Shown piece after piece: positions 9,407-31,344 of a stretch of DNA of 64,000 bases (its first letter is position 1; every line of letters starts with the position of its first letter). The notes under the pieces were generated by a model, which was given only the letters and a program-made list of their open reading frames with translations, was not told the origin of the DNA and did not search any database. The stretch covers positions 6,777 to 70,776 of IMG/VR virus record IMGVR_UViG_3300032285_002244; one strand, 5' to 3'. The DNA comes from a virus. Made by a program: the position numbers and the translations under genes.

Positions 9407-9444
9407 ATTTCTCCTAACTAGTCGCCCTCAGAACTAATTGTTTA

Positions 9445-11417: not shown

Positions 11418-11457
11418 GTATTCCCCTCGGAATTCTTAATGCCCCTCAGAAATTAAA

Positions 11458-12373: not shown

Positions 12374-12707
12374 GAGTCAAAGCCTGGTTTTGGAAGTGGT
12401 GTGTGAGCATTTGCTGAAAACTTATTCTGAGAACCAGAAACTTCTAATCCTCCTGGACCATCAAATTTACTTGTTTCAGGCATAGCTTGCTTACTTACTG
12501 TCATTGCCTGGGAACCAAACTCCGTTTGTGAAATCATGACTCTATTTTGCCCTCTTTCTTGGTTTGTGTACGGGCATAATACTTGCATTAACGCCTACGA
12601 CCAAACGTTCTTTTGTTCCTTTTGTGGAACCCAATTTGTAGTTGCCTCATTAGCAAGGTATTGTGAGGAAAAGCATAGGGTTACCTACGCGGAGCGAAAG
12701 GCACAGG

Positions 12708-13184: not shown

Positions 13185-13701
13185 ACTAAATGAGGAACAA
13201 ATGATTCGAGCTTTTACCGCTGGAATTAAACGTCAGTCTAGACACCGTGACCCAATTACTGGAGAACGTGGTTCTACACACAGATTCGTACCGCATGACC
13301 CTGCCTTTATTGGAGATATCTACGGATGCCTTATTGAGATGGCAGTATCCATTTATTTTGGCACTACTTGGAACAGCGAAGATTGGGATTTGAAAGAACA
13401 CAGCCAACATAAAGCTACTTCAGATGTAGAACCTCATTTTGAAGTAAGACGTGCTAGAAGCATTAAGGGTGAACTAACAATTCGCAATACAGATGCTGAC
13501 CACAAAGTAGCAGTATTGGGTACGCTAGGAACTGAAATTGTAAGCGGTAAAGAGTTCCCAAGAGAAAATTTAGTTATTCTTCTAGGAGCTATAACTGTTG
13601 CAGAAGCTCGTCAAAAGTTTACGCCAAGTGAAAATGGCAATTTGTATGTTCCAGTATCCGCTCTTTATCCAGTAAAGGATTTTGTTTTAACAAATGCCTA
13701 A
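13171..13701 (+). CDS. Hypothetical protein (possible nuclease-like fold)
   Basis: 176-aa ORF with GxxxE, SDV and FEVR motifs. Confidence 0.55.
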   Translation: MELIKLNEEQMIRAFTAGIKRQSRHRDPITGERGSTHRFVPHDPAFIGDIYGCLIEMAVSIYFGTTWNSEDWDLKEHSQHKATSDVEPHFEVRRARSIKGELTIRNTDADHKVAVLGTLGTEIVSGKEFPRENLVILLGAITVAEARQKFTPSENGNLYVPVSALYPVKDFVLTNA

Positions 13702-13870
13702 TTACGAATACGCTTGTATCCAGTGCGACATTGATTACGAAAAAGAGCGTAGCATCCATGAAGCAGAACCTGAATATTTCTGCGACAAGTGTGGCTACGC
13801 TCTTCAACGAGTGTTCTCACCCTTTGGCCTTCAATTTAAAGGCTCAGGGTTTTATTCAACTGGTAATTAG
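13694..13870 (+). CDS. FmdB-family zinc-ribbon protein
   Basis: MPNYEYACIQC...CDKCGYALQRVFSPFGLQFKGSGFYSTGN (below ORF-track cutoff). Confidence 0.85.
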   Translation: MPNYEYACIQCDIDYEKERSIHEAEPEYFCDKCGYALQRVFSPFGLQFKGSGFYSTGN

Positions 13871-14208
13871 TTGTAGTCTGGGTCGTCTGTTTTAGCTGGA
13901 GCTGTCTTTGCAGCTGCATCTGCTGCTTGACGCTCTTCAACTTTTACATCTGCGACTGTCTTTGCACCCTTATCAACTGTAGCAAATGCTGCGTTGATTT
14001 CATCAAGGGTAAGCTTTCCATCGTCCATAAACGCACGGGCTAGCTTTTCAATTACGGCTGCTACTGCTGTAAGTCCAGCAACAAGCATTGCTTTAGCGAC
14101 TGAGATACCAGCAACTGCACCAGCACCAATTACGCCAAGACCGCTTGCTGCAAACACTGCAACAATACGCATTAATACGTTATTTAAACTCTTCATTAGA
14201 TTCCTCAT
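13867..14208 (-). CDS. Holin-like membrane protein
   Basis: Two hydrophobic helices then DDGKLTLDEINAAF. Confidence 0.55.
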   Translation of the reverse strand: MRNLMKSLNNVLMRIVAVFAASGLGVIGAGAVAGISVAKAMLVAGLTAVAAVIEKLARAFMDDGKLTLDEINAAFATVDKGAKTVADVKVEERQAADAAAKTAPAKTDDPDYN

Positions 14209-14237
14209 TGATGTCCTTTGCGGTCTTATGCACGATG

Positions 14238-14699
14238 TCAGTTAACTTTTTTTGCGTCTATTCCCTCACTACGGAACATTCTAACATTCTTCTTCTTATC
14301 ATCATAGGCTTTCTTGATATCAAAGTTAGGTAAAACCTCATTTTTTAAAAGGTCTTTCTTAACGACCTTATCTTTACGGTCGTCATCTATTGGGCGCATA
14401 AATAGGCTGTCGTAGGGTATTCCGTGTTCATGTAACCAAGTCTTGGTGTCTTTGCGGTAATGAGCAGAACGGGCAGTAAGGATTACTACATCTCGTCCTT
14501 TTGATTTTGCTTTACGAACTTTTTCCACCATTTTTGGGACAGCGTCAGCGCCAGCAGCATGACTACGAAAGCCTTCATGATTCTTTTTATGATTTGCATT
14601 TGGGTCATTTGTATCCGCCAAGGTTCCATCTAAATCAAAAAGTACAGCTTTGTTACTTCTTTTGTTTTTGCCAGTCTCAAAGGTGTTGTTCTTACTCAT
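14238..14699 (-). CDS. HAD phosphatase (polynucleotide kinase 3'-phosphatase type)
   Basis: FDLDGTLAD, LTAR, LFMRP..D.RKD..VK, YDD motifs. Confidence 0.85.
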   Translation of the reverse strand: MSKNNTFETGKNKRSNKAVLFDLDGTLADTNDPNANHKKNHEGFRSHAAGADAVPKMVEKVRKAKSKGRDVVILTARSAHYRKDTKTWLHEHGIPYDSLFMRPIDDDRKDKVVKKDLLKNEVLPNFDIKKAYDDKKKNVRMFRSEGIDAKKVN

Positions 14700-15019
14700 T
14701 CCTCAATTATGACGTTATTTTCAGGATTCGTCTCTAGAACCGATGGGTCAACTCCACGGACTATAAGAGTTGTTAACGGAGTGTTAGATTGGACAACAGC
14801 ATTAAGACGGTGCTGACCGTTAAGAAGACGACCATTGGAATCAAATATGAGTGCTTTTCCGTTGAGTTTCCATTTGCCATCTTGCATCTCCTTTATGTAC
14901 TCGTCTACTTTCTTTTGCTTTACCTTACGGTGCATAGCATTGTTCTTAAGATATGCCTCTGCTTCTGAGGGATTAACTACCTCAATTGATACTTCTAAAC
15001 CAAACTCATTTGGATTCAT
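14696..15019 (-). CDS. ParB/Srx-like N-terminal domain protein
   Basis: GRLLNGQHRLNAVV. Confidence 0.7.
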   Translation of the reverse strand: MNPNEFGLEVSIEVVNPSEAEAYLKNNAMHRKVKQKKVDEYIKEMQDGKWKLNGKALIFDSNGRLLNGQHRLNAVVQSNTPLTTLIVRGVDPSVLETNPENNVIIEE

Positions 15020-15278
15020 TTACTTTTTCCATTCGTTTTAAATACTCGTCTTTTTTGCTCATTAAGAACTCTTCAATATCTTTTTGGCGGTCTTTCATAG
15101 ACTGCTGTAATTGCGCCCAATGTTCAGTCTTCTCAAGTTCTTCTTGATGTTCTTCTATCTCAGCAACGGCTATATCAAGCATCTGTTGCATAAGAGCAGC
15201 TTTCATCTGTGCTTCATTCCAAAGCGTCTCTGCGTGCTCAGTAATTCGTTCTTGTTTCTTATCCTGTGTCTTACTCAT
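15006..15278 (-). CDS. Coiled-coil hypothetical protein
   Basis: ORF; TAAGGT 6 nt before ATG suggests leaderless start. Confidence 0.6.
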   Translation of the reverse strand: MSKTQDKKQERITEHAETLWNEAQMKAALMQQMLDIAVAEIEEHQEELEKTEHWAQLQQSMKDRQKDIEEFLMSKKDEYLKRMEKVNESK

Positions 15279-15294
15279 GCCCCCACCTTATCAG

Positions 15295-15843
15295 TTACTT
15301 ATATTGCTCCATAATCAGGATTGGCCCTGAACTATTAACATCTACTTTACATGCATGTTCTACAGCTTCTTCTGGGGTAGCTCCTGCAAGTAACGCCCCC
15401 ATAGCGTAGGGAGAACCAGAGCCTACCCCATAAATTCCAAGTTCAGAACGACAAACTGACAAATCGTCAGCAACGTCAAAGAGTTCGCCACCTACTGCAA
15501 TAAGGAAATTAAATCTAGTGTCATCTGCTTTTCCATCGCCCTTACCTTCGTTAAAGTCATAACCATTATCAGTTAAACATTTACGCAGAGAAGCCATAAC
15601 TTTAACAATCATAAACTTATAAAGGTCTGCTCTATCTTTTGCAGTTAACTTTGGTGGTTGCCAAATCTGTTGCACAACATCACATGGTTGTACTTCGCCA
15701 CTTCCTGCAATTAAAAACTCACCACGTTCTGCAATCTTTTTCATGTCGGGATGGTTGTAACGGCGTCCGCTATCACCAGTTACCTGATTGTCAGCAGCTA
15801 TTACACACTTATCCTCGTATTGAACCCCAACGATTGTAGTCAT
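15295..15843 (-). CDS. Proteasome beta/HslV-like Ntn protease
   Basis: N-terminal MTTIVG, AAD..VT, MKKI, GVGSGSPYAMGAL. Confidence 0.85.
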   Translation of the reverse strand: MTTIVGVQYEDKCVIAADNQVTGDSGRRYNHPDMKKIAERGEFLIAGSGEVQPCDVVQQIWQPPKLTAKDRADLYKFMIVKVMASLRKCLTDNGYDFNEGKGDGKADDTRFNFLIAVGGELFDVADDLSVCRSELGIYGVGSGSPYAMGALLAGATPEEAVEHACKVDVNSSGPILIMEQYK

Positions 15844-15918
15844 GTCTCTCCTTCCAAAGAAGAACCCCCCTAGAATACCAGATGGTTTCCTAGAGGGGTT
15901 GGGGTCAAGGCGTCCTTA

Positions 15919-16665
15919 TTATAGGAGTTTGACCAGCTCCGCCCAAGTCTTAGGCCCAATGATTCCATTGGAGTCTACGATATCGTGGTTATCTTGGAAA
16001 GCAATTACTGCCTTCTTTGTAGCTGGACCATAGTCCCCATCTTCAACTAGGGTTAAAGCGTGCTGTACGAGCTTTACAGCCTCTCCCTGGTCTCCTGGTG
16101 TAATTCGACCTGGGAACTCTGGTGTGGAGCTTACAGGGACGTCTGACTCGACTTCATTGCCTTTGTAATTAGGGCGTCCAAAGCCTTCGATGAATACTGG
16201 AATACCCTTTGGGTTCTTCTTGTACGCACGAATCTTCTTAACGCATTCTCCACCATTGGCTTGTGAACCTGACTTTTTCTTATCTCCTGCAGTATTACCT
16301 TCTACAGTAGTTACTGTACCATCGCCATTATCTTTGATAACAATACCAACGTGCTCAATTGGAGCGCCACCTGCCATAAAGTCAAAGTAAACAATGTCTC
16401 CTGGTTCTGGCTTTGCCTTAGCAGCATCTGTCCATGTGCCCATCTTCTTAAATGAAGCAGCACCTGCCATAGTTGCAACGGTGTTAGGAATCTTAACTCC
16501 TGCTTCATTTGCTACCCACATGCAGAAAGAACCGCACCATGGAAGGAAATTAGCCTTAGTAAATTTACCGTACTTGGTTTCGTTGTCCTTTGGACCCTCT
16601 ACATAACCAACTTCTGCGAGAGCAACTTCTACCATCTTTGCTGCTGTACCTTTTGCTGCTGCCAT
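15919..16665 (-). CDS. Endolysin: CHAP domain plus peptidoglycan-binding domain
   Basis: PWCGSF, PGDIVYF, HVGIV, TVEGNT; C-terminal DGDYGPATKKAVIAFQ...GIIGPKTW. Confidence 0.9.
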   Translation of the reverse strand: MAAAKGTAAKMVEVALAEVGYVEGPKDNETKYGKFTKANFLPWCGSFCMWVANEAGVKIPNTVATMAGAASFKKMGTWTDAAKAKPEPGDIVYFDFMAGGAPIEHVGIVIKDNGDGTVTTVEGNTAGDKKKSGSQANGGECVKKIRAYKKNPKGIPVFIEGFGRPNYKGNEVESDVPVSSTPEFPGRITPGDQGEAVKLVQHALTLVEDGDYGPATKKAVIAFQDNHDIVDSNGIIGPKTWAELVKLL

Positions 16666-16853
16666 TACTTAACCTTCTTTTCTGGTCTCTTTGCAATACG
16701 AACTGTGGCGTTACGTTGTGCATCTTCTTTTTCTAACTTGTCTTTGTTAAAAGCACGTGTTTCTCTAGCAATCTTGTTTTTCTTGTCTCTACGGGCTTCA
16801 GGATTTCCAAGCAGTCTTGGTTTTTGCGGTCCTATTTTACTGCTTTTAGCCAT
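16665..16853 (-). CDS. Small basic protein
   Basis: Coupled ORF (TAATG junctions). Confidence 0.55.
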   Translation of the reverse strand: MAKSSKIGPQKPRLLGNPEARRDKKNKIARETRAFNKDKLEKEDAQRNATVRIAKRPEKKVK

Positions 16854-17164
16854 TATTTTTTCTTCTTTCTATGTTGGTTACCTTTACCAATATTTTTTGA
16901 AGCATCCATAACTTGTAAGTTCTTAGAGCTTTCATTCTTTTTGTTATTGTCTTTATGGTCAACGTGTTTGCTTTTTGGCAACTTATGACCTAATTCTTTT
17001 TCTTTCTTATTACGAGCTGCGTTTTGGCTGCCCATCTTTCCTGTTTCAGAGTTATAGACAACTACAGTCTTACGTCCACCATTTTGTTTAGACCCCTTGT
17101 AAGGGCCATAAACTTTGGTACCAGAGACTTTCTCATTTTTCTTAGTCATTAGTGTTGTTGCCAA
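16853..17164 (-). CDS. Small HNH-motif protein
   Basis: HVDHKDNNKKNESSKNLQV; start probably about 17149. Confidence 0.6.
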   Translation of the reverse strand: MATTLMTKKNEKVSGTKVYGPYKGSKQNGGRKTVVVYNSETGKMGSQNAARNKKEKELGHKLPKSKHVDHKDNNKKNESSKNLQVMDASKNIGKGNQHRKKKK

Positions 17165-17745
17165 TCTATAGCCATGAACTGCTTAGGGTTAATGTTTCTC
17201 ATTGCTGCCAAACGGTGGTGTCCTTCGTACACGTTCATACTACGAAGAGTTACTGGACGATTATTGGTTCCAAGTTTATAAAGAGCTGCTGTACTTTCAA
17301 GAAGTGGAAATGAACCTTTAAATCCTTCTTTTGAAATGTTCTCGTGTAAAGAGGGTAGAGATGAACTGCGTACTTCTTCTCCGTTATGTATTGCCCAACC
17401 AGATTGGTGTTCTTTACGAGTATGACTGTTTCTAAGTGTTCCAGTCTTACTTTCTTTTAACTTTCTTGCCATAACGTACTTTTCTTTGTTTACTTGGCTC
17501 TGTGGTTTCTCATCGCCTATGTAATTTTGATTGTACATTCCAGCATCAGCTAAATTTGCGTGTTTAACTACCTCACCTGCAGTCATAAACATAGGACGAT
17601 TGCCCTCTACTAACTCTTGTTTAAGACCCTTTTTCTTTGCAGGCTTTTCTTTTGCAACCTCTGTTTCAGGTTTAGCGGGTTTTTGTCTTAATTTCTTAAC
17701 ACTAGCGCTACTAAAGCCAGGAAGTGAGGGTTGAATAGCTCCCAT
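17149..17745 (-). CDS. ParB/Srx-fold protein, MFMT family (paralog 1)
   Basis: PMFMTAGEV...KLKESK...SLHENISKEG...YEGHHRLAAM. Confidence 0.7.
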   Translation of the reverse strand: MGAIQPSLPGFSSASVKKLRQKPAKPETEVAKEKPAKKKGLKQELVEGNRPMFMTAGEVVKHANLADAGMYNQNYIGDEKPQSQVNKEKYVMARKLKESKTGTLRNSHTRKEHQSGWAIHNGEEVRSSSLPSLHENISKEGFKGSFPLLESTAALYKLGTNNRPVTLRSMNVYEGHHRLAAMRNINPKQFMAIDWQQH

Positions 17746-17828
17746 TACGCCTCACAGATGCATTTGCAGGTGTCAACATTGCAAATACCATGGTCTAGCT
17801 CATGGTCGCAGAGTTTACACTTAGTCAT
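17745..17828 (-). CDS. 27-aa Cys-rich microprotein
   Basis: MTKCKLCDHELDHGICNVDTCKCICEA; CACAAT 6 nt upstream; stop overlaps next ATG. Confidence 0.45.
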   Translation of the reverse strand: MTKCKLCDHELDHGICNVDTCKCICEA

Positions 17829-17865
17829 TCGCATATTGTGACAGTTATGCGGTTAAATTACGACC

Positions 17866-18084
17866 CTAACTATTCCAAAGTCTCTCTTCTTCGGCGAGAA
17901 GTTTTTCAATATCAACTTGTTTGTTCTTTGTGAGGTCGTTTTTCATACCCTTGAAGGGCAACTCATCTTGCTTCCAATACTTTGAGCCATATCTCTCAGG
18001 ATTTTTATGAGACATCTCGTCATTGGACGTCTTAGCTTTCTTGTTACGTGCTGGCGCTTCACCCGAATTTTTTAATTTGTACAC
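17866..18084 (-). CDS. Small hypothetical protein ending EERLWNS
   Basis: ORF with GGGG RBS. Confidence 0.55.
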   Translation of the reverse strand: MYKLKNSGEAPARNKKAKTSNDEMSHKNPERYGSKYWKQDELPFKGMKNDLTKNKQVDIEKLLAEEERLWNS

Positions 18085-18299
18085 GCAAAACCCCTATTTT
18101 TCTTCTAGTTCCCAGAAATAGTCACCAACTACGTGGTCATCGCAAGCGAATGTCTCATCTAGCACGATGCAATAGTAGAGGGCCTGCTTGTCGCAGGAGC
18201 TGCACTTCACCATTTTCTTTCCTCTCAGTAACGGCTCACTTCATCAGAAGGCTACTGCCTGGAGGGGGAAATGCAAAATCTTATCTGCTAGGGGAGGTA

Positions 18300-18689
18300 T
18301 TACTTAAAAGGTCGAGGTTTGTTTGTAATTGGGTCACGATGCTTGCGAGCACCTAGGTCAGGGTTTAGCACAGAGGCTACTTGGCCCTTTACTACAAAGC
18401 CCTTCTTAGATACAACGGTATTCTTATCACCTAGCAATTCAGGATTATCTGATTGCACCGCATCTGCAGGAAGTGGTTCTACTTCATAGATGTTACCGTG
18501 ATGAGGGTGTTGTCCTGTTGAGCTAAAACCTAATCCGCTGGAGATTCTATCTGTGGTGTGCTTCTGAGCATAGTCGAAGCTCTTAGTTGCCCAGACATTC
18601 TTACCCTCTTCAAGTGGCTTAATTACCGCCCCTGGCTTTAGGGTTTCAATAGTCCCGTGGAATAATTGATGCGATAGTGGAGAGCTCAT
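18300..18689 (-). CDS. Arr-like ADP-ribosyltransferase-fold protein
   Basis: LFHGT...LKPG...VWAT...A......IYEVEP pattern of Arr/H-Y-class ARTs. Confidence 0.65.
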   Translation of the reverse strand: MSSPLSHQLFHGTIETLKPGAVIKPLEEGKNVWATKSFDYAQKHTTDRISSGLGFSSTGQHPHHGNIYEVEPLPADAVQSDNPELLGDKNTVVSKKGFVVKGQVASVLNPDLGARKHRDPITNKPRPFK

Positions 18690-18841
18690 GCTTTGCTACC
18701 ACTTGCTGTTGTGTTGAAGTCAGCTATCCCTGTCTTTTCGACATCGGAACGTTCTTTAGCCATCTGCTCTGTGAACTGAGTGCTAGATGCGTATGGGCTT
18801 ATACCGTATAGAGTCCAACCGAATTGGTCTTGTTTGCTCAT
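18686..18841 (-). CDS. Small hypothetical protein
   Basis: MSKQDQFGWTLYG...; overlaps both neighbours (TAATG, ATGA). Confidence 0.55.
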   Translation of the reverse strand: MSKQDQFGWTLYGISPYASSTQFTEQMAKERSDVEKTGIADFNTTASGSKA

Positions 18842-19212
18842 TAGTAATCACTGTGTTCTACTGGGATTAGCATTTTTGGGTCAATGTCGTAAGCTGCTGC
18901 CACTCTATGGTGACCCTCTGATAGAGAGTAACCTTTTTTACTAAATTTTGTATTTTTGGTATTACGTTGTAACTCTACAGGTTTCTGTACGCCCTTTTCT
19001 TTTACTGATTCATAAAGAGAATTGCCTTTGCGCTTGCGAGTAGGAACGTATCTAGCGTTACGTACTGCTCCAGTTTTTGACTCATAAAGTTTTTGATGCC
19101 ATAGGCCTTCCATATCATGCCCACCTGGGTCAGCAGAAGAGTTAACTTTGCTCTTTATCTCTTCAGCGGTCATGAACATAGCTAATTGCTCATGTGATAG
19201 TGGATTACTCAT
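18841..19212 (-). CDS. ParB/Srx-fold protein, MFMT family (paralog 2)
   Basis: QLAMFMTAEEI...LWHQKLYESK...SLYESVKEKGVQKPV...LSEGHHRVAAA. Confidence 0.75.
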   Translation of the reverse strand: MSNPLSHEQLAMFMTAEEIKSKVNSSADPGGHDMEGLWHQKLYESKTGAVRNARYVPTRKRKGNSLYESVKEKGVQKPVELQRNTKNTKFSKKGYSLSEGHHRVAAAYDIDPKMLIPVEHSDY

Positions 19213-19742
19213 TGGTTCTTAAAGTCAATCATGCCGCGCATCTGGCGAGCAGATAGGAATCTGCTTACTGGTGGAACTTCACCGCCGACTTTCTTAGCCC
19301 AAGAATCTCCTGCGCGGGTGCGAGAGGTTGAGTGTACTGGTGCTGGTACTGCTGGATAATCTTGTGCGTGTTGCTGTGCTTCAGTCCACAACTTAGTTGC
19401 TAATCCTTGGCGGCGATGCTGTGGGTGTGTCTCAACTGCATCAACTCTGCCTTCTCTATTGAGCACCATGTTAGAGAGATACTTACCTGATTGCTTATCA
19501 CTGAGAATGTAGAGATGTGGGTGAGCAGGTGTGAGGTTTGGATGATACTCAACCCTATGTTCACCAGATTCCCACGCCGCAGGTGGTGAACTATCTGGGT
19601 GCGCTGAACGAATATGTGCAGCATGACGTTCATCAGAGAAGAAAGATGCAGGACAAGCGTGACATCCTAAAGCAGGATACTTAGTTGTACTACCCTCTTC
19701 ACGAGGTAGGTCTCCACCGTACTTATCTGTTGGGGCGCTCAT
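19209..19742 (-). CDS. C2H2 Zn finger plus GNAT acetyltransferase
   Basis: CHAC...H....H; acetyl-CoA motif VETHPQHRRQGLATKL. Confidence 0.75.
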   Translation of the reverse strand: MSAPTDKYGGDLPREEGSTTKYPALGCHACPASFFSDERHAAHIRSAHPDSSPPAAWESGEHRVEYHPNLTPAHPHLYILSDKQSGKYLSNMVLNREGRVDAVETHPQHRRQGLATKLWTEAQQHAQDYPAVPAPVHSTSRTRAGDSWAKKVGGEVPPVSRFLSARQMRGMIDFKNQ

Positions 19743-19815
19743 AGATAAATAATAAAGCTACTGCCTAGCTTTTACTGGATAAAAAAATATTTCATAGGGG
19801 TGGTAGGCTCTTTAT

Positions 19816-20463
19816 ATGGGAATCGAGAGGTCTATAGAAGCTGGCAAAAAGAACTTTGCTGAAGCCAATGCTAGAAGAAGAGCAGCGAGTGCTCCTAGAC
19901 GTGCTGCTGAAGCATTAACTAAAGAAGAGCGTCAACGTCGCATACTTATCAAAAGACTTATGAAAGCTATAAAGCGTTATGCCAAAGCTAGGGAGAGAGA
20001 ACTACTCAATAACCAACACGGCGTTATCGTAGGAGATTACAGTCGTTGTAAGAGGAATAACGGAACTGCATGTGAGCCTTGCAAGGCTATCGCTGCTAAA
20101 TATGTGAGTGATAAGTGGGCAACTGACCCTAAGTACAAAGCCAGGGAAAAAGAGTGGTACAAGAATAACCCCCATAAGCGTCCACCCAAAAGTAGAGACC
20201 GTGCCCGTAGAACGGGAGCAAAGCGTAGTTATTACACCCGTCAACAGGTATTTGACCGTGATGGCTATGATTGTTATATCTGCCATACGACAGTTGATTT
20301 AACTGCAACACATATCCAAGGGCAACCTGGTTGGGAAACCTACCCGCATATTGAGCATGTAATCCCCCTGTCTCTAGGTGGGGACGATACCCTCGAAAAC
20401 GTCAAAATAGCTCACGCCAAGTGCAACATCGATAAAGGCACCAATCTTCTGGCTACTGCCTAA
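19816..20463 (+). CDS. HNH endonuclease
   Basis: RDGYDCYIC...IEHVIPLSLGGDDTLENVKIAHAKCN. Confidence 0.88.
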   Translation: MGIERSIEAGKKNFAEANARRRAASAPRRAAEALTKEERQRRILIKRLMKAIKRYAKARERELLNNQHGVIVGDYSRCKRNNGTACEPCKAIAAKYVSDKWATDPKYKAREKEWYKNNPHKRPPKSRDRARRTGAKRSYYTRQQVFDRDGYDCYICHTTVDLTATHIQGQPGWETYPHIEHVIPLSLGGDDTLENVKIAHAKCNIDKGTNLLATA

Positions 20464-21285
20464 CCTCCACACCCTCAACCATGTCTCCAACCTGGACGTA
20501 CTGTGGGGAAATTTGACCTAACTATGGGTGGGTGTCGTAACTTCTTTATCAATTACATTTACTACTTGTTTATTTAACTTGTATTTATTGTTCTATTTAC
20601 GCACGAATAGTTACACAATTAAATAGTTTGATAGCGGAATTGATAGCGAGATTAAATTACTTTCGGCTACTGCTATTTAATTGTTATTTAATGCTGCGAA
20701 TAACACCAGCCTTACAGCCACCTTGCCTTGTTGTTATCAACTATTACACACGCATATAACTATTGTTATTCACTTACTATTTACAATATGAAACACATAT
20801 CATTTACTAAGTATTGTTAAGTAGTTATGTATCAATAGTTATATGTATTCATATTCAATAACCACAACACATAGTTATCTCTTATCTATTCTCTCTCTCT
20901 CTTTAGTTATTAGTAATCATTATTTATTTATATCTAAGGGGGCTACGCCCCCTATAACCCCCGACCTTCTTTACTATTAGTTTTATACGCTAACTATTTA
21001 ATTATGTAAATCAGATGCTATTAACAATAACTATTTAACTAAATAAGTTATGTAACTTCTTTTACTACATAACTAAATAGTTATTACAAACTACTTATCT
21101 TCTTATTACTTATATATAAATATCATTACTGAATAAAATAAATGCGCAATTAAATTCTTTTGGCTCTTTTGTCGGTGGCGGTGGCTAGGGTCTATCTATG
21201 GTCAAAATTTGCCCCTGCTCACGCTCAAAACACGCACACTTTTGCCTACTTGCGTATCGGGTAGGAGTTCGACTACAATTTCGCT
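20464..21285. other. AT-rich non-coding region, candidate genome terminus/entry end
   Basis: No ORF of 60 aa or more; abrupt composition change at about 20520. Confidence 0.5.
21250..21279 (+). promoter_or_regulatory. Sigma70/SigA-type early promoter
   Basis: TTGCGT (21250)-N18-TACAAT (21274). Confidence 0.6.
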
Positions 21286-21625
21286 ATCGGTTAGCCCTTC
21301 GGTCTTTGAACAGGTTAATGAATAAAAAACAAAAATTGTTTTTGGTATTCATATAAATTATTTTTGTAATTGTTAATCGCGCACTTGCGCTAAATAAATG
21401 ATTAACGATTATATAAAAATAAATATCTAACGCTTTTATTAAGGTAACAAGTTACTTAGGACTAACCGAATTGGGCAGACAAACTTCTGCTAGTAAATAA
21501 CTTCCGCGAAACCAACGCAATTAGTTATTACTACTACTACGGATTAACAATTAAATACTTTCTATCGCTCACTTGTTGTTACTTGTTATGAGCAAGTAAT
21601 GACAAGTGAGTGGTGGTGAGTAGTT
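21286..21625 (+). ncRNA. Putative structured RNA / long 5' leader
   Basis: Nested stems with G-U wobbles on the + strand; begins about 7 nt after the -10 box. Confidence 0.55.
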
Positions 21626-21670
21626 AAACTTCTTTAACACTCAACAACAACTAATGAAACGGAGTAACAA

Positions 21671-21958
21671 ATGACAACAACAACAACACGCAACACAGAA
21701 AATATCGTTACACGCAATCGCCGTTATCAAAACGCAAAAGAACGCGCAGACAAAGTAAATAAATCACTTGCGTATTTCTCAGAAGTAGTTGGTGTTCAAC
21801 TTACTGATGAACAAGTTGAAAAAATTGTCAATCACAGTAGCAGTTTCGCGTTACTAACACAGTTCGCTGATAGTTCTTATGCGTTGTATTCAGACTTTTG
21901 CGAACAACACAATTACAAAGAAAAAGATATTACTTACCTTTATCCATACATACACTAA
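21671..21958 (+). CDS. Early hypothetical protein
   Basis: GGAG RBS; first gene of the plus-strand operon. Confidence 0.75.
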   Translation: MTTTTTRNTENIVTRNRRYQNAKERADKVNKSLAYFSEVVGVQLTDEQVEKIVNHSSSFALLTQFADSSYALYSDFCEQHNYKEKDITYLYPYIH

Positions 21959-21968
21959 GGAGTAACAA

Positions 21969-22145
21969 ATGACTAACAAAATTAAATTAACAAATCGTGG
22001 CAAGTGGGTTGTTGGAATAACAATCGCAATCATTACTTATTTAATCTTTAGTTGGTTGTATGAAATAACAACTCCCGATACTTGTAAAGTGCCGATAGAT
22101 GAAATGTCGCACTTTTGTATTGACCTTCTTTATCCGCACTCATAA
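21969..22145 (+). CDS. Small membrane protein
   Basis: MTNKIKLTNRGKWVVGITIAIITYLIFSWLY...; AAGGAG RBS. Confidence 0.7.
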   Translation: MTNKIKLTNRGKWVVGITIAIITYLIFSWLYEITTPDTCKVPIDEMSHFCIDLLYPHS

Positions 22146-22169
22146 CAACAAATAGAAACGGAGTAACAA

Positions 22170-22277
22170 ATGACAATCGCAACAATAGATGAACAAGGCA
22201 TAACACTTCTCGTAGATGATGATGTAACTAATTACTCGCAACTCGTATCTTTACTGAATAAAAAGGAGAATAAATAA
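22170..22277 (+). CDS. 35-aa microprotein
   Basis: Same GAAACGGAGTAACAAATG leader as 21671. Confidence 0.55.
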   Translation: MTIATIDEQGITLLVDDDVTNYSQLVSLLNKKENK

Positions 22278-22543
22278 TGAAGGTTAAATTGCGTAAAAAA
22301 AACAAGTTAGATATACAAAACAATCTCGCAGTAACTATCGAGATTAAAAACGCATTGGAGTTTATTCACCCTGAATTAACTCCTGATGAAGTAAAAGATA
22401 AGTTGGTCTTTCTCCTAGCGACTATCGCTGACCCAACACTTCTTAAATACCTAAACAATCAATACCTAGAAAAAGCAAATACAAAAGTTGATGAAGTTAC
22501 GGAACTTTATTCAACCTTTTTTAGCGATACCGAAAACAACTAA
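22277..22543 (+). CDS. Early hypothetical protein
   Basis: AAGGAG RBS. Confidence 0.7.
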   Translation: MKVKLRKKNKLDIQNNLAVTIEIKNALEFIHPELTPDEVKDKLVFLLATIADPTLLKYLNNQYLEKANTKVDEVTELYSTFFSDTENN

Positions 22544-22570
22544 CAACAACTAACAGAAACGGAAAACAAA

Positions 22571-23887
22571 ATGTCTTACTCAATACTAATTAGCGCAACA
22601 ACAAACAACGCAGATGTAATACAGCAACACTTGTTAATCGAACACAATGGTAAGAAAACTATTTGGTCAAGGGAAACCAATGGTGGTCGTGGTGAAGTTA
22701 ATGCGTGGTCATTACAGGATTACGCAGATATAACAACACGCAATAGTGCGAACTTTATTATCGGTGAAGTTCTTTCCTCTCCACTAACCGAAGTTGATAT
22801 TGACGCAGTAGAAAATAATTACAAGCCAAATGTTTTGATACAAAAACTTTCAAAACAATATGGACTACGCCATAAAGAAGTTAGCACTCAAACACTAGGA
22901 GAAGTAATGACAGAAGTTACGGCACTAATTGATAGCGACTCACAACAACTAGAGAAGTATCGGTCAGACGGCAGAAGCGACAAACAAGCCACCACCCCGA
23001 AAAAATCTGACCCACAAGTTGTTGAACCAATTATAGAAATCGTAAGACAACAACCAATAACAACTTCACAAGAAGTTATTGGTAATTATGTAATTCATAT
23101 TCCAACAAAAGATGAAGTTGGAAATTATATTCCGCGAGTATTTGACGGAATAACAGAAAAGAAGTTTTGGGATTACGCAATCAATCACAAAGCCAATGTT
23201 CTTTTAGAAGGCGGTGCTGGCACAGGTAAAACTTCTAGCCCGTTACACGATAGTTATTTGCGACAACAAGGTTGTGTGTTAGTCGGTTGTTCAGTAGGAC
23301 TTGAAGTAAGTCATCTACTTGGCAAAGTTGTTATTGACCCAACAAGTGGAAAACCAACTTGGGTTGATGGCGTATTAACACAAGCGATGAAAAATGGAGA
23401 CAGAATTATTTTTGATGAAGTGGATTTTGCGCACCCTAAAGTGTTACAACGAATTCAAGATGTAGCACAAAATCGCAAACTAACACTTATTGAAAATGGT
23501 GGTGAAGTTGTTGTAGCACACCCACACTTCTCTTTAGTCGCTACTTACAATAACGGCTATCGTCATAGCAACAAATTAAACGAAGCGTTCTTAGATAGAT
23601 TTACAAAGGTTCGCTTTGATTACGACAACGATATTGAAAAGCAGATTATTAAATCAACAACACTTCTACAACTCGCAAACCAAATGAGAGCAGACAGTAT
23701 TAGTGGTTTATATTCGACACCAATATCACTTCGTATTCTCAATCGCTTTCAACAACAAGCACAAGAACTTAACTTCGAGTTCGCTTCAACTTCTTTTGTA
23801 ATGAACTTTACAGATGAGGAACGCTCAAGTGTGAAACTTCTTTTGGAAGCACACCGCACACAACTTGAACAAGAACTATCAAACTAA
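22571..23887 (+). CDS. MoxR/CobS-like AAA+ ATPase
   Basis: GGAGTGKT, WVDGVLTQAM, IIFDEVD, ATYN, LNEAFLDRF. Confidence 0.88.
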   Translation: MSYSILISATTNNADVIQQHLLIEHNGKKTIWSRETNGGRGEVNAWSLQDYADITTRNSANFIIGEVLSSPLTEVDIDAVENNYKPNVLIQKLSKQYGLRHKEVSTQTLGEVMTEVTALIDSDSQQLEKYRSDGRSDKQATTPKKSDPQVVEPIIEIVRQQPITTSQEVIGNYVIHIPTKDEVGNYIPRVFDGITEKKFWDYAINHKANVLLEGGAGTGKTSSPLHDSYLRQQGCVLVGCSVGLEVSHLLGKVVIDPTSGKPTWVDGVLTQAMKNGDRIIFDEVDFAHPKVLQRIQDVAQNRKLTLIENGGEVVVAHPHFSLVATYNNGYRHSNKLNEAFLDRFTKVRFDYDNDIEKQIIKSTTLLQLANQMRADSISGLYSTPISLRILNRFQQQAQELNFEFASTSFVMNFTDEERSSVKLLLEAHRTQLEQELSN

Positions 23888-23922
23888 GGCTCAACACGAA
23901 AAACTAACAGAAGGGAAATAAA

Positions 23923-25842
23923 ATGTTTTTACAAGAGCAAACAGATGAACGACAAAAAGCACTAGCAATTAAACACAATCGCGTAACAAAGTTAGCAAGC
24001 ATATTTGCGAGAGCAAATAGTGTGCTGACAGGAAAACGAATTGCGGTTAATGTTGTAAATCAAGAACACCAAAAATCTCCTGCTTGGTCAAGCACAAATG
24101 AACTCTGGTTGAACCTTGCGGAGATTAAAGATGATTTAACTGCTCAAAGTATTTTGTCTTATCAAGGCTTAAATTTCCACGAACTTAGTCATATCAAGTT
24201 TTCACCCCGTAATGGAAGCGAACTTGTTAAGTGGGTTAAGGAAAACAATTTATGGCAAGCGTTTAATTGTTTAGAGGACAACCGAATTGAAAACCTTATG
24301 GTTGCCTATCTACCAACAGTTTCAAATTGGCTGACCGCAACAATTACTGATTACTTGATGTGTAATGATGAAGCAATTAAAACTGCTTATCCACTTGTTA
24401 CAGGTCGCAGATACTTACCAATCGAAATGCGCAATCTAGCAAAAGATAATTATGCTAGACCGCAAGATGTTGATGAGTTGTATTCAATCGTTGATGAATA
24501 TATAGGTTTAATTTTTGAAGGCAATCCTTCTGCTACCGAACAAGCAAAACCACTTCTTACACGCTTTAACGAATTGTTAGAGCAACTTCCACCAATACCA
24601 AATCCAAATGGTGGAGAAGGTGGAGAAGGTGGCACAACAGTTATCTATCGTGTTCATAATCCTAATGGTCATAATCACCGACCAACAGAAGGATACGAAA
24701 GCAGTAGCAATCGCCCTGCTGGTAAATCTCAACAAGAACAATTTAGAGATAAGTCAAAAGCGAAAGATACTTCTAAAGAAAAAGTAATTGTTATAGATGT
24801 TCGTAACGATACAAAAGAAGGTAGCGATACTTCTGCTGGCGAGTCAAAAGAACAATCACTAAATCAATCAAGTGGAAATGATTTTAGTGATTTTAATTTT
24901 GATGAGCAATCTCCTAGTGATTTAGAAGGTGGAGAGTCTGCTGGTAATCAAGAAGGAACAACAGGAGATAATCAACAAGTAACCGAAACTCTTGACGGCA
25001 TTATGAAAGATATTGTTAAAGAACTTTCAAAAGACATTAACCAAATTGCGAAGCAACTAGGAATTAGTGTTGATTTAGAAGGTGGCAATATCGAAACACC
25101 TACTCGCGCACACTACAAAGATGTAACCGCTAATCCTGAATTGGTGCTTATATCTAAAGCGTTTGGAAAAGAGTTAGAGCGTTTGCGTTCTAACTACGAA
25201 CCTTATTGGGAAACAGAAGTGGATAATGGTCGCTTAAATGTTACTCGGTATCTTGACGGCAACGACTTCGATACAGTTTTTGATGAGTGGCAAGAAGGCA
25301 AAGATGATGTTACTTCTATTGAAGCAGTTATTCTTTTAGATAAAAGTGGCTCAATGAGTGGAGAAAATTCTGACAATGCTTACAAGTCAATGTGGGCTAT
25401 CAAGAAGGCACTTGAACAAGTAGAAGCACGAACAACAGTTTGTTTGTTCGATAGCAGAACAACACTTCTTTATAGTGCTGATGAAAGAGCAGGAAGCACT
25501 ATTAGAGATAGTGGTGCTAGTGGTGGCACTAATCCTTGCGACAGTTTGTTATACGCAAAGAAGGTCTTAGCAGATACAGATAAGAAAATTCGTATCTTGT
25601 TTATGATTACTGACGGCGCGTGGGAAACAGAAGCAGGAGAAAAAGCCATTACTGAAATGCGCAACGCTGGTGTTCTTACTTGCCAAGCGTATTTAGATAG
25701 TGGAGAAGCAAGGAAAGAATACCTAGAGAAATTGCGCCATAGTTTTGAGTTACTAACTCATATCAAATCCGCAAAAGATATTGCGATACTTGGTAAAGAG
25801 TTAGTTCGGTTAGCAATCGCTCGCAATCTAATCAATCACTAA
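23923..25842 (+). CDS. CobT-like VWA protein with N-terminal HExxH domain
   Basis: FHELSH...FNCLEDNRIE; acidic linker; MIDAS LLDKSGSM, GGT, ITDG. Confidence 0.85.
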   Translation: MFLQEQTDERQKALAIKHNRVTKLASIFARANSVLTGKRIAVNVVNQEHQKSPAWSSTNELWLNLAEIKDDLTAQSILSYQGLNFHELSHIKFSPRNGSELVKWVKENNLWQAFNCLEDNRIENLMVAYLPTVSNWLTATITDYLMCNDEAIKTAYPLVTGRRYLPIEMRNLAKDNYARPQDVDELYSIVDEYIGLIFEGNPSATEQAKPLLTRFNELLEQLPPIPNPNGGEGGEGGTTVIYRVHNPNGHNHRPTEGYESSSNRPAGKSQQEQFRDKSKAKDTSKEKVIVIDVRNDTKEGSDTSAGESKEQSLNQSSGNDFSDFNFDEQSPSDLEGGESAGNQEGTTGDNQQVTETLDGIMKDIVKELSKDINQIAKQLGISVDLEGGNIETPTRAHYKDVTANPELVLISKAFGKELERLRSNYEPYWETEVDNGRLNVTRYLDGNDFDTVFDEWQEGKDDVTSIEAVILLDKSGSMSGENSDNAYKSMWAIKKALEQVEARTTVCLFDSRTTLLYSADERAGSTIRDSGASGGTNPCDSLLYAKKVLADTDKKIRILFMITDGAWETEAGEKAITEMRNAGVLTCQAYLDSGEARKEYLEKLRHSFELLTHIKSAKDIAILGKELVRLAIARNLINH

Positions 25843-25850
25843 AGAAGTTA

Positions 25851-25878
25851 TGAGGGCAGATAAATAAATCTGCCCTCA
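25851..25878 (+). promoter_or_regulatory. Intergenic stem-loop without U-tract
   Basis: TGAGGGCAGAT-loop-ATCTGCCCTCA. Confidence 0.55.
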
Positions 25879-25920
25879 ACACGAAAAACTTACAATCAAC
25901 TAATAGAAACGGAAAACAAA

Positions 25921-26508
25921 ATGAAGCATAGTGAATTAAATGTTGGTGTTGAATACGCAGTAATTCCTAGTTGGACTTACTCGTCAAAGAGTGCTATGGA
26001 TATAGACAAAGTTAGAGAAAATGATGTTGTAAAAGCAGTTCTACTTTCTGCTGATAAGTATGAGTATGAAGCAAGTCAAAGAAGTTCTGACCCAACTTCT
26101 TTTAAGAAAGCAGAAGCAGGTAATAGAAGTGTTGGTGTTCTTGTAAAGGCAACAGATAAAAATGGTAGTGATGTTTATTGGACTTCACGCCTTACTCATA
26201 TTGTTGCGCCTTACGCAGTATTAGAACCTAAGTGGCAAAAAGCAAAGCAAGATGAGGAAGCAAAAGAACGCGAACAAAACGAGATACGAAACAGGGTTAA
26301 GGAACACCAGGCGCGTGTGAGTGCGGAAGTTGAACGCTCTCGTAATTCAGTAATCAATACTGCTAAAGAACTCTTAGGGGCAACAAGTGATGTAGAAGTT
26401 GATACTAGGGGTTACGAATTGGAATATCGCGGTGTTGTAAATTTATCAATCTCCGAGTTTGAGTTACTTGTCGAACTCGCTTATCAAGGAAAGAGTGCGG
26501 TGGCTTAA
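25921..26508 (+). CDS. Early hypothetical protein
   Basis: 195-aa ORF with repeated leader. Confidence 0.75.
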   Translation: MKHSELNVGVEYAVIPSWTYSSKSAMDIDKVRENDVVKAVLLSADKYEYEASQRSSDPTSFKKAEAGNRSVGVLVKATDKNGSDVYWTSRLTHIVAPYAVLEPKWQKAKQDEEAKEREQNEIRNRVKEHQARVSAEVERSRNSVINTAKELLGATSDVEVDTRGYELEYRGVVNLSISEFELLVELAYQGKSAVA

Positions 26509-26761
26509 ATGATTATCGAACTATCAAATGACCAACTCGCATTACTTCTAAAGGTGCTTGGTAAAGAAAAGGCTTATCTAAATGCTGGTGGGTTCTACGC
26601 AAGTGCGCACTTAGTTAGTGCGTTACAAGAACACTTAAAGAACAATGCTAAAGAAGGTGTGTAATGAACTTATGGAATTGGTTTATGGAAACACCCGAAA
26701 AAGTATTGATACTAATAATCGTAATACCAATAGCGGTTTATGTAATCGCAGATAGGAATAA

Positions 26762-27145
26762 ATGATGTTAATAGATGAAGCACTAACAACCCGTTATGAG
26801 AAAAAACCTAGAGTTTATTATTTCGTAGAAGCAAGTAATGGGGGCAGGTTAATTCGCGGTTCTTGGCGTGATATGTATTCACACGCGGTTATCGCTTGCC
26901 CTAAAGAACTTAACTATGAAAACGAAATATCTTATGGTTCTTTCCATAGCAGTAAGCAGTTAGCAGAACGCTCTAAGAAGTCTTGGGAAAACTATCAAAA
27001 GAAGGCTGGTAGTAATTACGAAGGTATGACTTGGGAAGTAGTGGAAGTAAAAAAGATTACTGCTAAAGAAGCAAGACAATTAAAGAACGCAGATAGAAAA
27101 GCATTAAAGGCTTGGAGAGAAAAACAGGTGCTAGTAAATAACTAG
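26762..27145 (+). CDS. Early hypothetical protein
   Basis: ORF with AGGA RBS. Confidence 0.7.
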   Translation: MMLIDEALTTRYEKKPRVYYFVEASNGGRLIRGSWRDMYSHAVIACPKELNYENEISYGSFHSSKQLAERSKKSWENYQKKAGSNYEGMTWEVVEVKKITAKEARQLKNADRKALKAWREKQVLVNN

Positions 27146-27164
27146 CCTTCAACACGAAAAAGAA

Positions 27165-27887
27165 ATGGAAAACAAAATGACTACAAATACAAAACGCAGA
27201 ACTGGTGGTGCGAAAGGTGCTAATGGTTATGGCGAATACAAAGTTAGATACGCAAGTGAAAGACAGACCTATTTCATAAAGAAGTTACTGGCTCAAAAGA
27301 AGCACAACTACGGAGAGTTAGATTTAACAACTCTTAATGTTCAAGGTGCTGGAGATGTAATCAATGAACTATTAAAGTGTCCTGATAAAGAAGGTTATGT
27401 AGAAGCACCAACAGAAAAACAACTTTCTTTTGCCCAATCTTTAATTACCAATAAAGAAGGTGGCACAGAACTTCTTAATAAGTTACTTAGTTCTCACAAC
27501 GCAACTTCTTTAGACCAACTTAGTAAGCAAGTAGTGTCTGGGATTATCAACACGCTAAAACTAGCAAAAGAAGTTCCACTATCAATAACCGAAGTAGGCG
27601 CGTATTTGAAAGACGCAACTATTTACTCAATTCGCAAAAGTAAAGAAAGCACAGTATTTCAAGTGTGGTCTTACAACAAAGATATGAATAAGTATCTTAG
27701 AGAACCAAACAACAATAAAGAAAAAGAGTTACTAAAGACATTACAACCAACAGACAGACTTACTTTAGAACTCGCAATTAGATACTCGGCTCAAACAGGA
27801 ATATGTGTCCATTGTGGGCGCACTCTTACGCTATTAAAGAGTGTGGCTGGCGGTATGGGTGCGGTATGCGCTAAGAGGTATCGCTAA
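27165..27887 (+). CDS. DUF6011-like Zn-finger protein
   Basis: ASERQ/PTEKQ repeats; C-terminal CVHCGRTLT...S...GMGAVCAKR; start probably 27177. Confidence 0.7.
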   Translation: MENKMTTNTKRRTGGAKGANGYGEYKVRYASERQTYFIKKLLAQKKHNYGELDLTTLNVQGAGDVINELLKCPDKEGYVEAPTEKQLSFAQSLITNKEGGTELLNKLLSSHNATSLDQLSKQVVSGIINTLKLAKEVPLSITEVGAYLKDATIYSIRKSKESTVFQVWSYNKDMNKYLREPNNNKEKELLKTLQPTDRLTLELAIRYSAQTGICVHCGRTLTLLKSVAGGMGAVCAKRYR

Positions 27888-28213
27888 TGTTAATTACTGC
27901 TAAAGAACTTAAAGCGTATATTGATAAGTGGTATGGACACGATTTAGACCAACCATTGTTCTTTATATGTATGGATAAAGGCGAATTACATAACTATCAA
28001 TTTGAACAACTATCGCAATACCAAACTGCTAATGACTTACCAATAGATTTAGTGGAAAAAGTATTTGACCAAATTAGTGAATACGATAGTTTTTGGGATA
28101 CCTTAAAAGACACTATCGAATACGAAGTTGATAATTGGGTAGTTAAACAAGACACAACCGAAATAGAAAACTTAGATAAAGAACTATGGGGAGATACAAA
28201 TGAAAGTAAGTGA
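27887..28213 (+). CDS. Acidic hypothetical protein ending KELWGDTNESK
   Basis: Coupled ORF. Confidence 0.7.
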   Translation: MLITAKELKAYIDKWYGHDLDQPLFFICMDKGELHNYQFEQLSQYQTANDLPIDLVEKVFDQISEYDSFWDTLKDTIEYEVDNWVVKQDTTEIENLDKELWGDTNESK

Positions 28214-28532
28214 GTTACAAGAACTGCTAAAGAAGTATGAACCTGATACGCAAGTAATTGTTGCGATATGGGATAAAGAGTGCTTCAAGGCTATGGACAC
28301 AGAGGAAAGATTAGTTACGGATAAAGAGTGGGATTATGTAGCAGAAAAGTTTAATGTTGGACTACACGATTTAACTCTTGGTGCTTCAATCCGTAATGTA
28401 TTAGAAAACGAAATAGAAATACAAAATAAAAAAACAGACGAGTTTATATCTGACTATATGGCTAGTTATCTAGCAGGAGTAACAGATGAACAACTATGGG
28501 ATAGCCCCACAACGAAAAAAGGAGAACAGTAA
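28200..28532 (+). CDS. Acidic hypothetical protein (possible paralog of 27887)
   Basis: MKVSELQELL; EQLWD near C-terminus. Confidence 0.7.
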   Translation: MKVSELQELLKKYEPDTQVIVAIWDKECFKAMDTEERLVTDKEWDYVAEKFNVGLHDLTLGASIRNVLENEIEIQNKKTDEFISDYMASYLAGVTDEQLWDSPTTKKGEQ

Positions 28533-31331: not shown

Positions 31332-31344
31332 ACTTCTTTATCAT

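Follow-up and report, generated by a model that had tools for sequence, protein, structure and literature searches.

What is encoded by the non-coding DNA ahead of the rightward operon of this phage, and what could its product do? We analysed a stretch of 64,000 nucleotides (nt; hereafter, the window) corresponding to bases 6777-70776 of the 70,776-base IMG/VR virus record IMGVR_UViG_3300032285_002244, which was judged to be approximately 73% complete. Within it, a 1.2-kb gap free of open reading frames (ORFs; 20463-21670, approximately 33% G+C) separates divergent gene blocks, and an earlier note had placed a structured RNA at the right end of this gap, which is occupied by the leader of the operon. 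This leader proved to be a conserved, strand-specific RNA structure, present ahead of the operon in this phage and in dozens of relatives. Sequence, folding and covariation show a 385-nt untranslated, modular + strand RNA, made up of a 5' domain, a linker, a cassette with two alternative states, and an unstructured start region. The cassette, formed by two adjoining hairpins, H1 and H2, is the main subject of what follows.

On the + strand, positions 21286-21670 had a minimum free energy (MFE) of -110.3 kcal/mol, compared with -66.7 ± 4.9 kcal/mol for 100 dinucleotide shuffles, the control proposed in the earlier note (z = -8.89; none of the 100 as good). The - strand of the same interval gave -93.7 kcal/mol (z = -5.5). 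The MFE structure contained the elements that had been described from the sequence, namely a helix closing the 5' domain, a hairpin and a long arm with its GCGC-ACUU-GCGC cap (Table 1), as well as the long helix H1, in which the six non-Watson-Crick pairs (21563/615, 21565/613, 21567/611, 21577/601, 21578/600, and 21586/592) are indeed all G-U pairs on the + strand. The loop motif GTTATGAGC was rejected as a repeated genomic signal, with 14 matches versus 13.0 expected.

The operon encodes a MoxR-type AAA_5 ATPase with many metagenomic homologues, several of them on contigs of approximately 100 kb. With an alignment of 29 ATPase homologues as the query (a single ATPase returned none), we gathered 80 relative loci from IMG/VR. 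The whole gap was recognisably homologous as DNA in 52 of these loci by nhmmer, and all inspected relatives shared the same layout, with a leftward block, a gap of approximately 1.0-1.3 kb, and a rightward block of small ORFs followed by the ATPase gene. A blastn search of 20400-21700 against GenBank phages gave no match, and an exact H1 18-mer matched viral contigs three times, each time by chance. Unless otherwise indicated, the results below refer to 39 distinct sequences (alignment A9) for family-wide cassette counts, 16 relatives for the 5' domain (closing helix P0, hairpins P1 and P2, and z-scores), 14 sequences for the promoter and the first seed alignment, and contigs from four DNA runs, approximately 94% identical over the leader, for natural variants.

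RNAalifold analysis of the 14 sequences revealed compensatory changes in 9 of 14 basal H1 pairs. A covariance model, R1, built from six relatives, produced 44 matches in the 80 loci and the window: 29 syntenic matches on the + strand, one other, weak + strand match, and 14 weaker - strand images of the same hairpins. The 25 distinct + strand rows (576 cells) formed standard pairs in 98.1% of cells, with compensatory changes in 21 of 25 pairs and 66 G-U versus 1 A-C combination; slid controls paired in 29-36% of cells. When the - strand images were included, the 44 rows were 93.3% paired, a value reached by none of 500 shuffles, and the unpaired cells were concentrated at wobble positions. The 14 + strand rows outside the first seed were 97.4% paired, with double changes in 19 of 25 pairs.

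A second model, R2, covering both hairpins and built only from rows outside the first seed, identified the element (E ≤ 0.0015) in the window and in 52 of the 80 loci, on the + strand and ahead of the ATPase gene, with three further loci at E ≤ 0.1; the best - strand match had an E-value of 0.0019. The earlier note had proposed looking for covariation in homologues upstream of the ATPase operon, and across the 39 sequences, 20 of 22 pairs did show changes on both sides, with 98.9% of cells paired, a figure that, like the other pairing percentages given here, is inflated because covariance-model alignments are fitted to the model structure. The slid controls (29-51% paired), the shuffles, and the strand asymmetry are not affected by this fitting. 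The covariation score was 0.848 versus 0.248 and was reached by none of 500 shuffles. Both hairpins contributed, with compensatory changes in 15 of 16 modelled H1 pairs (98.5% standard pairs) and in 5 of 6 H2 pairs (100% of cells paired). In addition, 89 G-U combinations were counted versus 4 A-C, which, together with the ratio obtained from the 25 sequences, upholds the view that selection acts on an RNA rather than on a DNA palindrome.

H1 and H2 lie 0-1 nt apart, and the model matches were 70-99 nt long. In the window, the cassette starts 270 nt after the predicted transcript start and ends 28 nt before the start codon; in the relatives, a start codon always came 15-45 nt after its end, across a C/A-rich stretch without structure. 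Specific U-G wobble pairs are maintained at the base of H1 (UG in 24 and 27 of the 39 rows), and sequence conservation is highest at the H1/H2 junction. A scan of IMG/VR viral contigs for the junction motif yielded 73 loci, of which 5 were already in our set and none of the other 68 carried the element according to R1; the motif thus occurs elsewhere only by chance, and the cassette is specific to this clade. One relative, L009, has a second H1/H2 copy (1627-1702) between two genes of the same operon, approximately 1 kb downstream of the leader copy and approximately 25 nt before the next start codon.

Natural variants were observed in the near-relative contigs. The changes C21562T and G21616A together convert a basal H1 pair from C-G to U-A, and G21567A and G21613A each replace a G-U pair in H1 with A-U. 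Two variants run against the structure: G21615T removes one basal H1 pair, and the 5' arm of H2 (21618-25) is rewritten, with no matching changes in the 3' arm. By hand reading, a shifted 4-bp H2 is possible in these contigs, again in competition with the base of H1.

The alignments indicate that the cassette has a two-state design, in which either H1 and H2 form together or H1 is extended at the expense of H2. The 5-6 nt preceding H1 can pair with the 5' arm of H2, which lengthens H1 (127 of 148 cells standard in an earlier alignment, A5). In A9, this pairing was observed in all 39 rows for columns 3-85 (CG in 18, UA in 18) and 4-84 (UA in 19, GU in 11, AU in 5), in 38 rows for columns 1-87, in 34 for 5-83, in 32 for 2-86, and in 16 for 6-82. 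Flank columns 3 and 4 showed 19 and 17 double changes with columns 85 and 84, respectively. Columns 84 and 85 also covary with the 3' arm of H2 (AU 19 and UA 16; GC 20 and AU 18), so that a single strand has two partners and both pairings are maintained.

Two folds had been foreseen in the earlier note, with a different strand as the competitor: GATTAACAATTA (21542-53), an exact complement of 21367-78. This complementarity exists in the window, where only 2 of 200 shuffles were as good, but an analogous duplex reached the 5% level in only 4 of the 16 relatives, and we rejected it as a conserved feature. The alternative backed by covariation is instead the pairing of 21556-60 with 21618-22, which competes with H2.

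The two states are close in energy. As nearest-neighbour predictions from constrained folds of the 39 sequences, the energy of H1 plus H2 minus that of the extended state averaged -1.41 kcal/mol (range -5.4 to +1.9) and was within 2 kcal/mol in 22 of them; in the window, the two states had energies of -44.0 and -43.9 kcal/mol, a difference of -0.1. The extended helix measured 19-24 bp in 36 of the 39 sequences (median 23), and H1 alone measured 13-19 bp in most sequences (median 17).

Table 1. Predicted features of the leader and of the DNA just upstream (window coordinates).
Feature	Position	Strand	Details
Motif CACGCTCA-N3-CACGC	21220-21235	+	Upstream of promoter; candidate regulator site
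Sigma-70-type promoter	21250-21279	+	-35 TTGCGT 21250-55, 18-nt spacer, -10 TACAAT 21274-79; predicted start at about 21286
P0, closing helix	21287-94 (UCGGUUAG) / 21462-69 (CUAACCGA)	+	Unconstrained MFE, 8 bp
P1, bulged 5' hairpin	21294-21315	+	GCC-c-UUC-loop-GAA-ca-GGU
P2, A-run/U-run hairpin	21318-21352	+	MFE
Long A/U-rich arm	21358-78/21400-22	+	MFE; capped by GCGC-ACUU-GCGC 21379-90
Two linker hairpins	21474-91 and 21492-532	+	MFE; homologous sequence in L006 and L007
5' flank X (UACUU)	21556-21560	+	Pairs with 21618-22 in extended-H1 state
H1	21562-87/21591-616	+	26 bp, 3-nt loop, MFE
H2	21617-21643	+	11-bp hairpin abutting H1; 5' arm pairs in both states of the switch
C/A-rich unstructured start region	21644-21673	+	GGAG 21661-64, ATG 21671

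Across the clade, the leader is approximately 240-440 nt long, its architecture being kept while its sequence drifts. The 5' domain is highly variable in both length (236-437 nt) and sequence. Folded without H1/H2 in the 16 relatives, it had z-scores of -1.0 to -6.5 (30 shuffles each), which were at or below -3.3 in 14 of them, and the + strand scored below the - strand in 15, with one tie. In the window, P0 encloses a domain of approximately 180 nt containing P1, P2 and the long arm. A long-range MFE helix analogous to P0 and starting from nt 1-2 of the predicted transcript was found in 10 of the 16 relatives, with its own sequence in each; it measured, for example, 8 bp in the window, 10 bp in L021, and 11 bp in both L007 and L028. 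In 8 of 16 relatives, this 5'-end duplex outperformed shuffled 12-mers (5% level), and in five of them none of 200 shuffles was as good. These results support the closing helix described in the earlier note and, independently, the start-site assignment.

For P1, an outer stem (21290-96/21313-19) is an alternative to P0. When the 65 nt following the predicted start were folded without constraints, 12 of 16 relatives, versus 14 of 960 shuffles, showed the P1 architecture: between the outer stem and an inner stem of 3-5 bp that carries the loop, one nucleotide, invariably C, bulges on the 5' side and two nucleotides on the 3' side. The stem sequences differed between relatives. In the contigs that are approximately 94% identical, T21315C changes a G-U pair of P1 to G-C. 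A strict automatic test detected an A/U hairpin after P1 in 9 of 16 relatives, and inspection by eye in 13. The outermost P2 pair is changed from A-U to G-C in a near relative (A21318G and T21352C), and, against the structure, T21346A removes one P2 pair in the approximately 94% identical contigs. P2 is made of A and U only and has a U-rich tail in some relatives, and weak attenuation may take place there. A GC-capped hairpin was visible by eye at the place equivalent to the capped arm in some members of the 14-sequence alignment. The linker hairpins are followed by an A/U-rich single strand. A 12-codon ORF (21318-21356) is not kept in the relatives, which thus have no conserved leader ORF; by hand reading of the approximately 94% identical contigs, its ATG is replaced by GTG, two amino acids are changed, and the stop codon is lost. 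A leader peptide was ruled out on these grounds. Sequence similar to the start region was found at 22125-69 and before the ATG at 25922. After the VWA gene, at 25851-25922, we also observed a G+C-rich 11-bp intergenic hairpin without a U tract, followed by a start region close to identical with that of the first gene, AACTAAT-GAAACGGA-N-ATG.

The TTGCGT-N18-TACAAT promoter described earlier lies where it had been placed, and a predicted sigma-70-type promoter is conserved ahead of the leader in the relatives. The -35 (consensus near GTTGCR) and -10 (TAYAMT) elements were aligned across the 14 sequences, with a variable spacer of 16-18 nt, and in the relatives tested, a regular expression for such a promoter matched 244-443 nt upstream of H1. 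A generic promoter scan did not call the window promoter because TTGCGT has only three of the six positions of TTGACA. Upstream, the 29-nt stretch around the CACGCTCA motif is 93-96% identical in L019, L020, and L010; CACGCTCA is present in two copies 11 nt apart in several relatives, with tandem ACGCTCA at this spacing in L014, L018, and L019. Just upstream of this motif and the promoter, a G-rich (GGY)n tract (GGTGGCGGTGGC...) was observed on the + strand at 21172-21190; it occupies the same place in L012 and L018, and is far longer in the latter. In six relatives (L024, L025, L027, L028, L029, and L066), besides the distal promoter, a TTGCAA-N16-TACATT sequence resembling a promoter lies upstream of the cassette, with 10-11 nt between its end and the 5' flank; it may be a second, proximal start site or a chance occurrence in A/T-rich DNA.

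As to what this RNA does, we tentatively propose, as the best reading though short of an even chance, that H1/H2 is a cis-acting processing and stability cassette of the RNase III type on the operon transcript. The conserved promoter (21250-79) would start the 385-nt leader of the rightward operon, and the cassette would act in cis on the fate of the operon transcript as opposed to that of one gene. The extended helix, of about two helical turns, would be cut by a host double-strand-specific RNase of the RNase III type, which would part the structured 5' domain from the coding RNA and leave a hairpin close to the new 5' end of the message. Formation of H2 would shorten the helix to approximately 17 bp and mask the site, so that the balance between the states would set the level of processing, and P0 and P1 would protect the primary 5' end. 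The helix of about two turns (approximately 20 bp or more) expected of an RNase III site is present in the extended state and in H1 of the window.

A role at the level of the transcript is suggested by the genes that follow. The first ORFs after the leader in 12 relatives were 15-25% identical to that of the window and belonged to at least five unrelated families. All 12 begin with M-T-T-T, because the start region is C/A-rich. Since the first ORF varies while the element stays, the element appears to serve the transcript and not one gene; the intergenic copy in L009 and the lack of an internal terminator (none was predicted on the + strand in 20400-31344, either at the leader or inside the operon before 31345) point in the same direction. 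The first-gene position (21671-21958 in the window; first ORFs of L006-L031) is a hot spot of gene turnover at the operon head, where anti-defence genes are typically located. We rejected the idea that the first ORF encodes an N-like RNA-binding partner, the first ORFs of the 12 relatives not being homologous.

Several points weigh against this proposal. No RNase III or double-stranded RNA-binding domain is encoded in the phage record, which is approximately 73% complete, and the presence of RNase III in the host is an assumption. The conserved U-G wobbles and junction are more in keeping with recognition by a specific partner, for example RNA polymerase, than with generic cutting of double strands. 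The length of the extended helix is conserved only slightly more tightly than that of H1, with outliers in the window (31 bp) and L052 (30 bp). The state energies are predictions and the pairing percentages are inflated, as stated above. Finally, no RNA sequencing run was listed with the leader sequence, and no transcript, 5' end, or cleavage was seen.

More speculatively, and with considerable doubt on our part, H1/H2 might represent a new class of portable, protein-free phage RNA switch, which would dock on a conserved host machine (RNA polymerase, as put does, or a nuclease or helicase) through the wobble-rich helix base and the junction. The competition between the flank and H2 would then act as a co-transcriptional timer, and the element would insulate fast-exchanging early genes from host termination or decay.

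The main rival to the processing cassette, which we consider unlikely although several features favour it, is an RNA for processive antitermination or against pausing, similar to put, in which the nascent double hairpin would bind the host RNA polymerase and keep it elongating through the 10-kb operon. Two hairpins 0-1 nt apart, together 70-99 nt long and starting 270 nt after the predicted transcript start, precede an operon of approximately 10 kb; the conserved wobble pairs and junction are as expected of a contact surface; and the downstream genes vary while the element stays. Such an RNA would cover terminators or Rho sites in the often-exchanged downstream genes, with extended H1 as the inactive fold. 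However, H1 is a long regular helix, unlike stem I of HK022 put, a triplex with non-canonical pairs according to PMC9378689. Moreover, no terminator that would have to be overcome is predicted inside the operon, and antitermination does not need two copies in one transcription unit, as found in L009.

Control of translation was judged improbable. In such a standby element, the two states would alter the single strand upstream of the Shine-Dalgarno sequence and so tune whichever gene follows, which accords with the distance of always 15-45 nt to the start codon, with the unstructured C/A-rich stretch in between, with the start codon after the second L009 copy, and with the unrelated ORFs that follow the cassette. 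However, neither state pairs consistently with the Shine-Dalgarno sequence: by hand reading, the H2 3' arm is complementary to GGAG in the window group but not in the L019 group. In addition, the switch frees only 5-7 nt.

Slightly more improbable is a non-coding RNA released to act in trans, in which case the closed 5' domain or an excised hairpin would serve as a decoy or inhibitor of host defence or of a host factor. The 5' domain is closed by P0 and very stable, and it opens an early-type operon whose genes turn over fast; however, its great variation in length (236-437 nt) and sequence is unusual for an RNA that has to fit a partner, and neither a terminator nor a defined 3' end was found.

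We consider it a shade less probable still that the promoter drives a transcript that activates an origin or serves as a primer, running into an A/T-rich region next to repeated motifs, with the RNA fold governing R-loop formation. Analogues of such a transcript are ColE1 RNA II and the T7 and T4 origins. The setting would suit it: the leader lies in the 33% G+C, ORF-free gap between divergent gene blocks, A-run/T-run repeats occur just downstream of the promoter, and the adjoining block 20451-20962 is conserved without covariation and has several duplicated motifs. This block is the best-conserved DNA of the gap (mean column identity of 67% in nine phages whose ATPases are 44-79% identical). 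It contains GGCTACTGC twice, TTGATAGC twice in tandem, CATTGTG..ATCAC twice, and GTTATGTA twice, and it terminates in an invariant hairpin, GGGGGCT(A/T)CGCCCCC, followed by AACCCCC. We rejected it as a second structured RNA, with an unfavourable covariation term and compensatory changes in only 2 of 62 predicted pairs (+ strand alignment as folded); given this low number, the block resembles DNA bound by a protein, such as an origin, packaging, or regulatory site. Against an origin transcript, the best-conserved module of the leader is at its far end, by the ribosome site, and recurs between genes in L009; furthermore, GC skew tracks gene direction and provides no independent mark of an origin. 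Lastly, chance structure in A/T-rich DNA, or double-stranded palindromes bound by protein, is very improbable, since although the - strand also folds better than shuffles and the region is rich in short inverted repeats, the excess of G-U over A-C (89 versus 4), the compensatory changes reached by none of 500 shuffles, and the closing helix tied to the predicted transcript start all speak against it.

Among the other genes of the window, we identified those encoding a portal protein and a large terminase, a family-A DNA polymerase, a DnaB-type helicase and a ribonucleotide reductase, as well as a DpdA-like transglycosylase. The ATPase, which is encoded with a VWA partner, had matches in 249 GenBank phage records, each below 60% identity, and the best identity of the DNA polymerase to any cultured phage was 38.3%. 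The phage belongs to an uncultured clade with genomes of approximately 100 kb, to which cultured phages are all distant. To the right of the gap, the operon of small ORFs, the ATPase gene, and the VWA gene runs from 21671 to a strong terminator at 31345-76, over approximately 10 kb. Beyond it, a 448-amino-acid ORF (31417-32763) had integrase-family matches in two separate stretches, with a weak HNH-type match between them; the gene set is otherwise lytic-looking. The gap is bordered on the left by an HNH endonuclease gene (19816-20463), which is an insertion relative to most relatives and is shared by L007. In L077, the sequences flanking it (19748-19805 and 20451-20962 in the window) are only approximately 32 nt apart, and other relatives carry different inserts there. 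This gene has the appearance of a free-standing homing endonuclease gene bordering the control region. The sequence AACTTCTTTW (one mismatch at most) occurred 102 times in the whole window versus 26.6 expected, a number reached by none of 100 shuffles. It was mostly found opposite the gene strand in 22000-62000, was sparse in the structural-gene part (1-19700), and was present on the + strand of the non-coding gap at 20539, 20964, 21054, 21152, and 21627. Codon or peptide bias, or a signal, may account for this excess.

The statement in the earlier note that no known family could be recognised was borne out. A search of the whole window against Rfam 15 at gathering scores gave no match, and in 19700-21800 at E ≤ 10, there were six matches, all far under gathering and all resembling microRNA precursors on the long hairpin, the best being a microRNA precursor model (30.7 bits versus a gathering score of 74). 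No description of this element was found in full-text literature, supplements aside. The leader appears to be a new motif of the phage early-leader regulatory RNA kind, with an unusual and well-supported two-state cassette. Structured leaders of phage early operons (nut, put, and RNase III sites) have taught much about antitermination and RNA processing. To our knowledge, these leaders all come from a few cultured coliphages, while the one described here comes from an uncultured clade, and the covariation of its cassette for two competing folds is unusually clean. It offers RNA biologists a well-defined new motif fit for submission as a family, and a natural two-state design with a built-in length rule, which could be tested by simple locking mutants. 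It also shows where a transcription unit with fast-changing first genes has its promoter and start, the kind of position in which anti-defence genes tend to sit.

Among known systems, nutL in the pL leader of phage lambda is followed by a hairpin sensitive to RNase III, upstream of gene N, and the early region of T7 contains the RNase III site R0.3 and intercistronic sites. As in these phages, the leader of an early operon is long and untranslated, with a small hairpin towards its 5' end and a long double-stranded one just ahead of the first ribosome site. The approximately 23-bp extended helix is comparable to the two-turn size of RNase III substrates, and the second copy in L009 recalls the hairpins between genes in T7. 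However, the leader has no sequence relation to those of lambda and T7 and no Rfam match; its first gene is not N-like, unlike that of lambda, and differs between relatives; and its helix is regular, without the internal loops of the T7 sites, cleavage being a prediction here. The conserved three-way covariation of the two-state switch is not known from the lambda and T7 sites.

In phage HK022, put RNA suppresses downstream terminators through the zinc-binding domain of the RNA polymerase beta' subunit. According to PMC9378689 and PMC8632103, put elements are approximately 65-70 nt long, form two stem-loops in early transcripts, and, in the case of putR, lie approximately 270 nt downstream of the start site, with an effect that lasts for at least 10 kb. 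The cassette is likewise a double hairpin of similar size in an early transcript, located in the window approximately 270 nt from the start, as is putR, and ahead of an operon of approximately 10 kb; in the relatives, the two stem-loops are found 244-443 nt downstream of the conserved promoter. Being a regular helix of 13-26 bp with 98.5% standard pairs, H1 gives little sign of a put-like stem I, for which PMC9378689 describes a triplex and non-canonical pairs, the two being compared by description only. The L009 operon also differs from put in having two cassette copies, and no internal terminators are predicted here.

Bistable leader switches include attenuators, riboswitch expression platforms, and the c4 leader RNA of phage P1. 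The cassette differs from these in that neither a terminator/anti-terminator output (H2 is followed by CAACAAC instead of a U tract, and the terminator scan was empty at the leader) nor masking of the Shine-Dalgarno sequence was found, and in having no conserved ligand pocket or leader peptide. It nevertheless shares their central feature, since one strand has two mutually exclusive partners, both of which are kept by covariation, and the two resulting states are close in energy.

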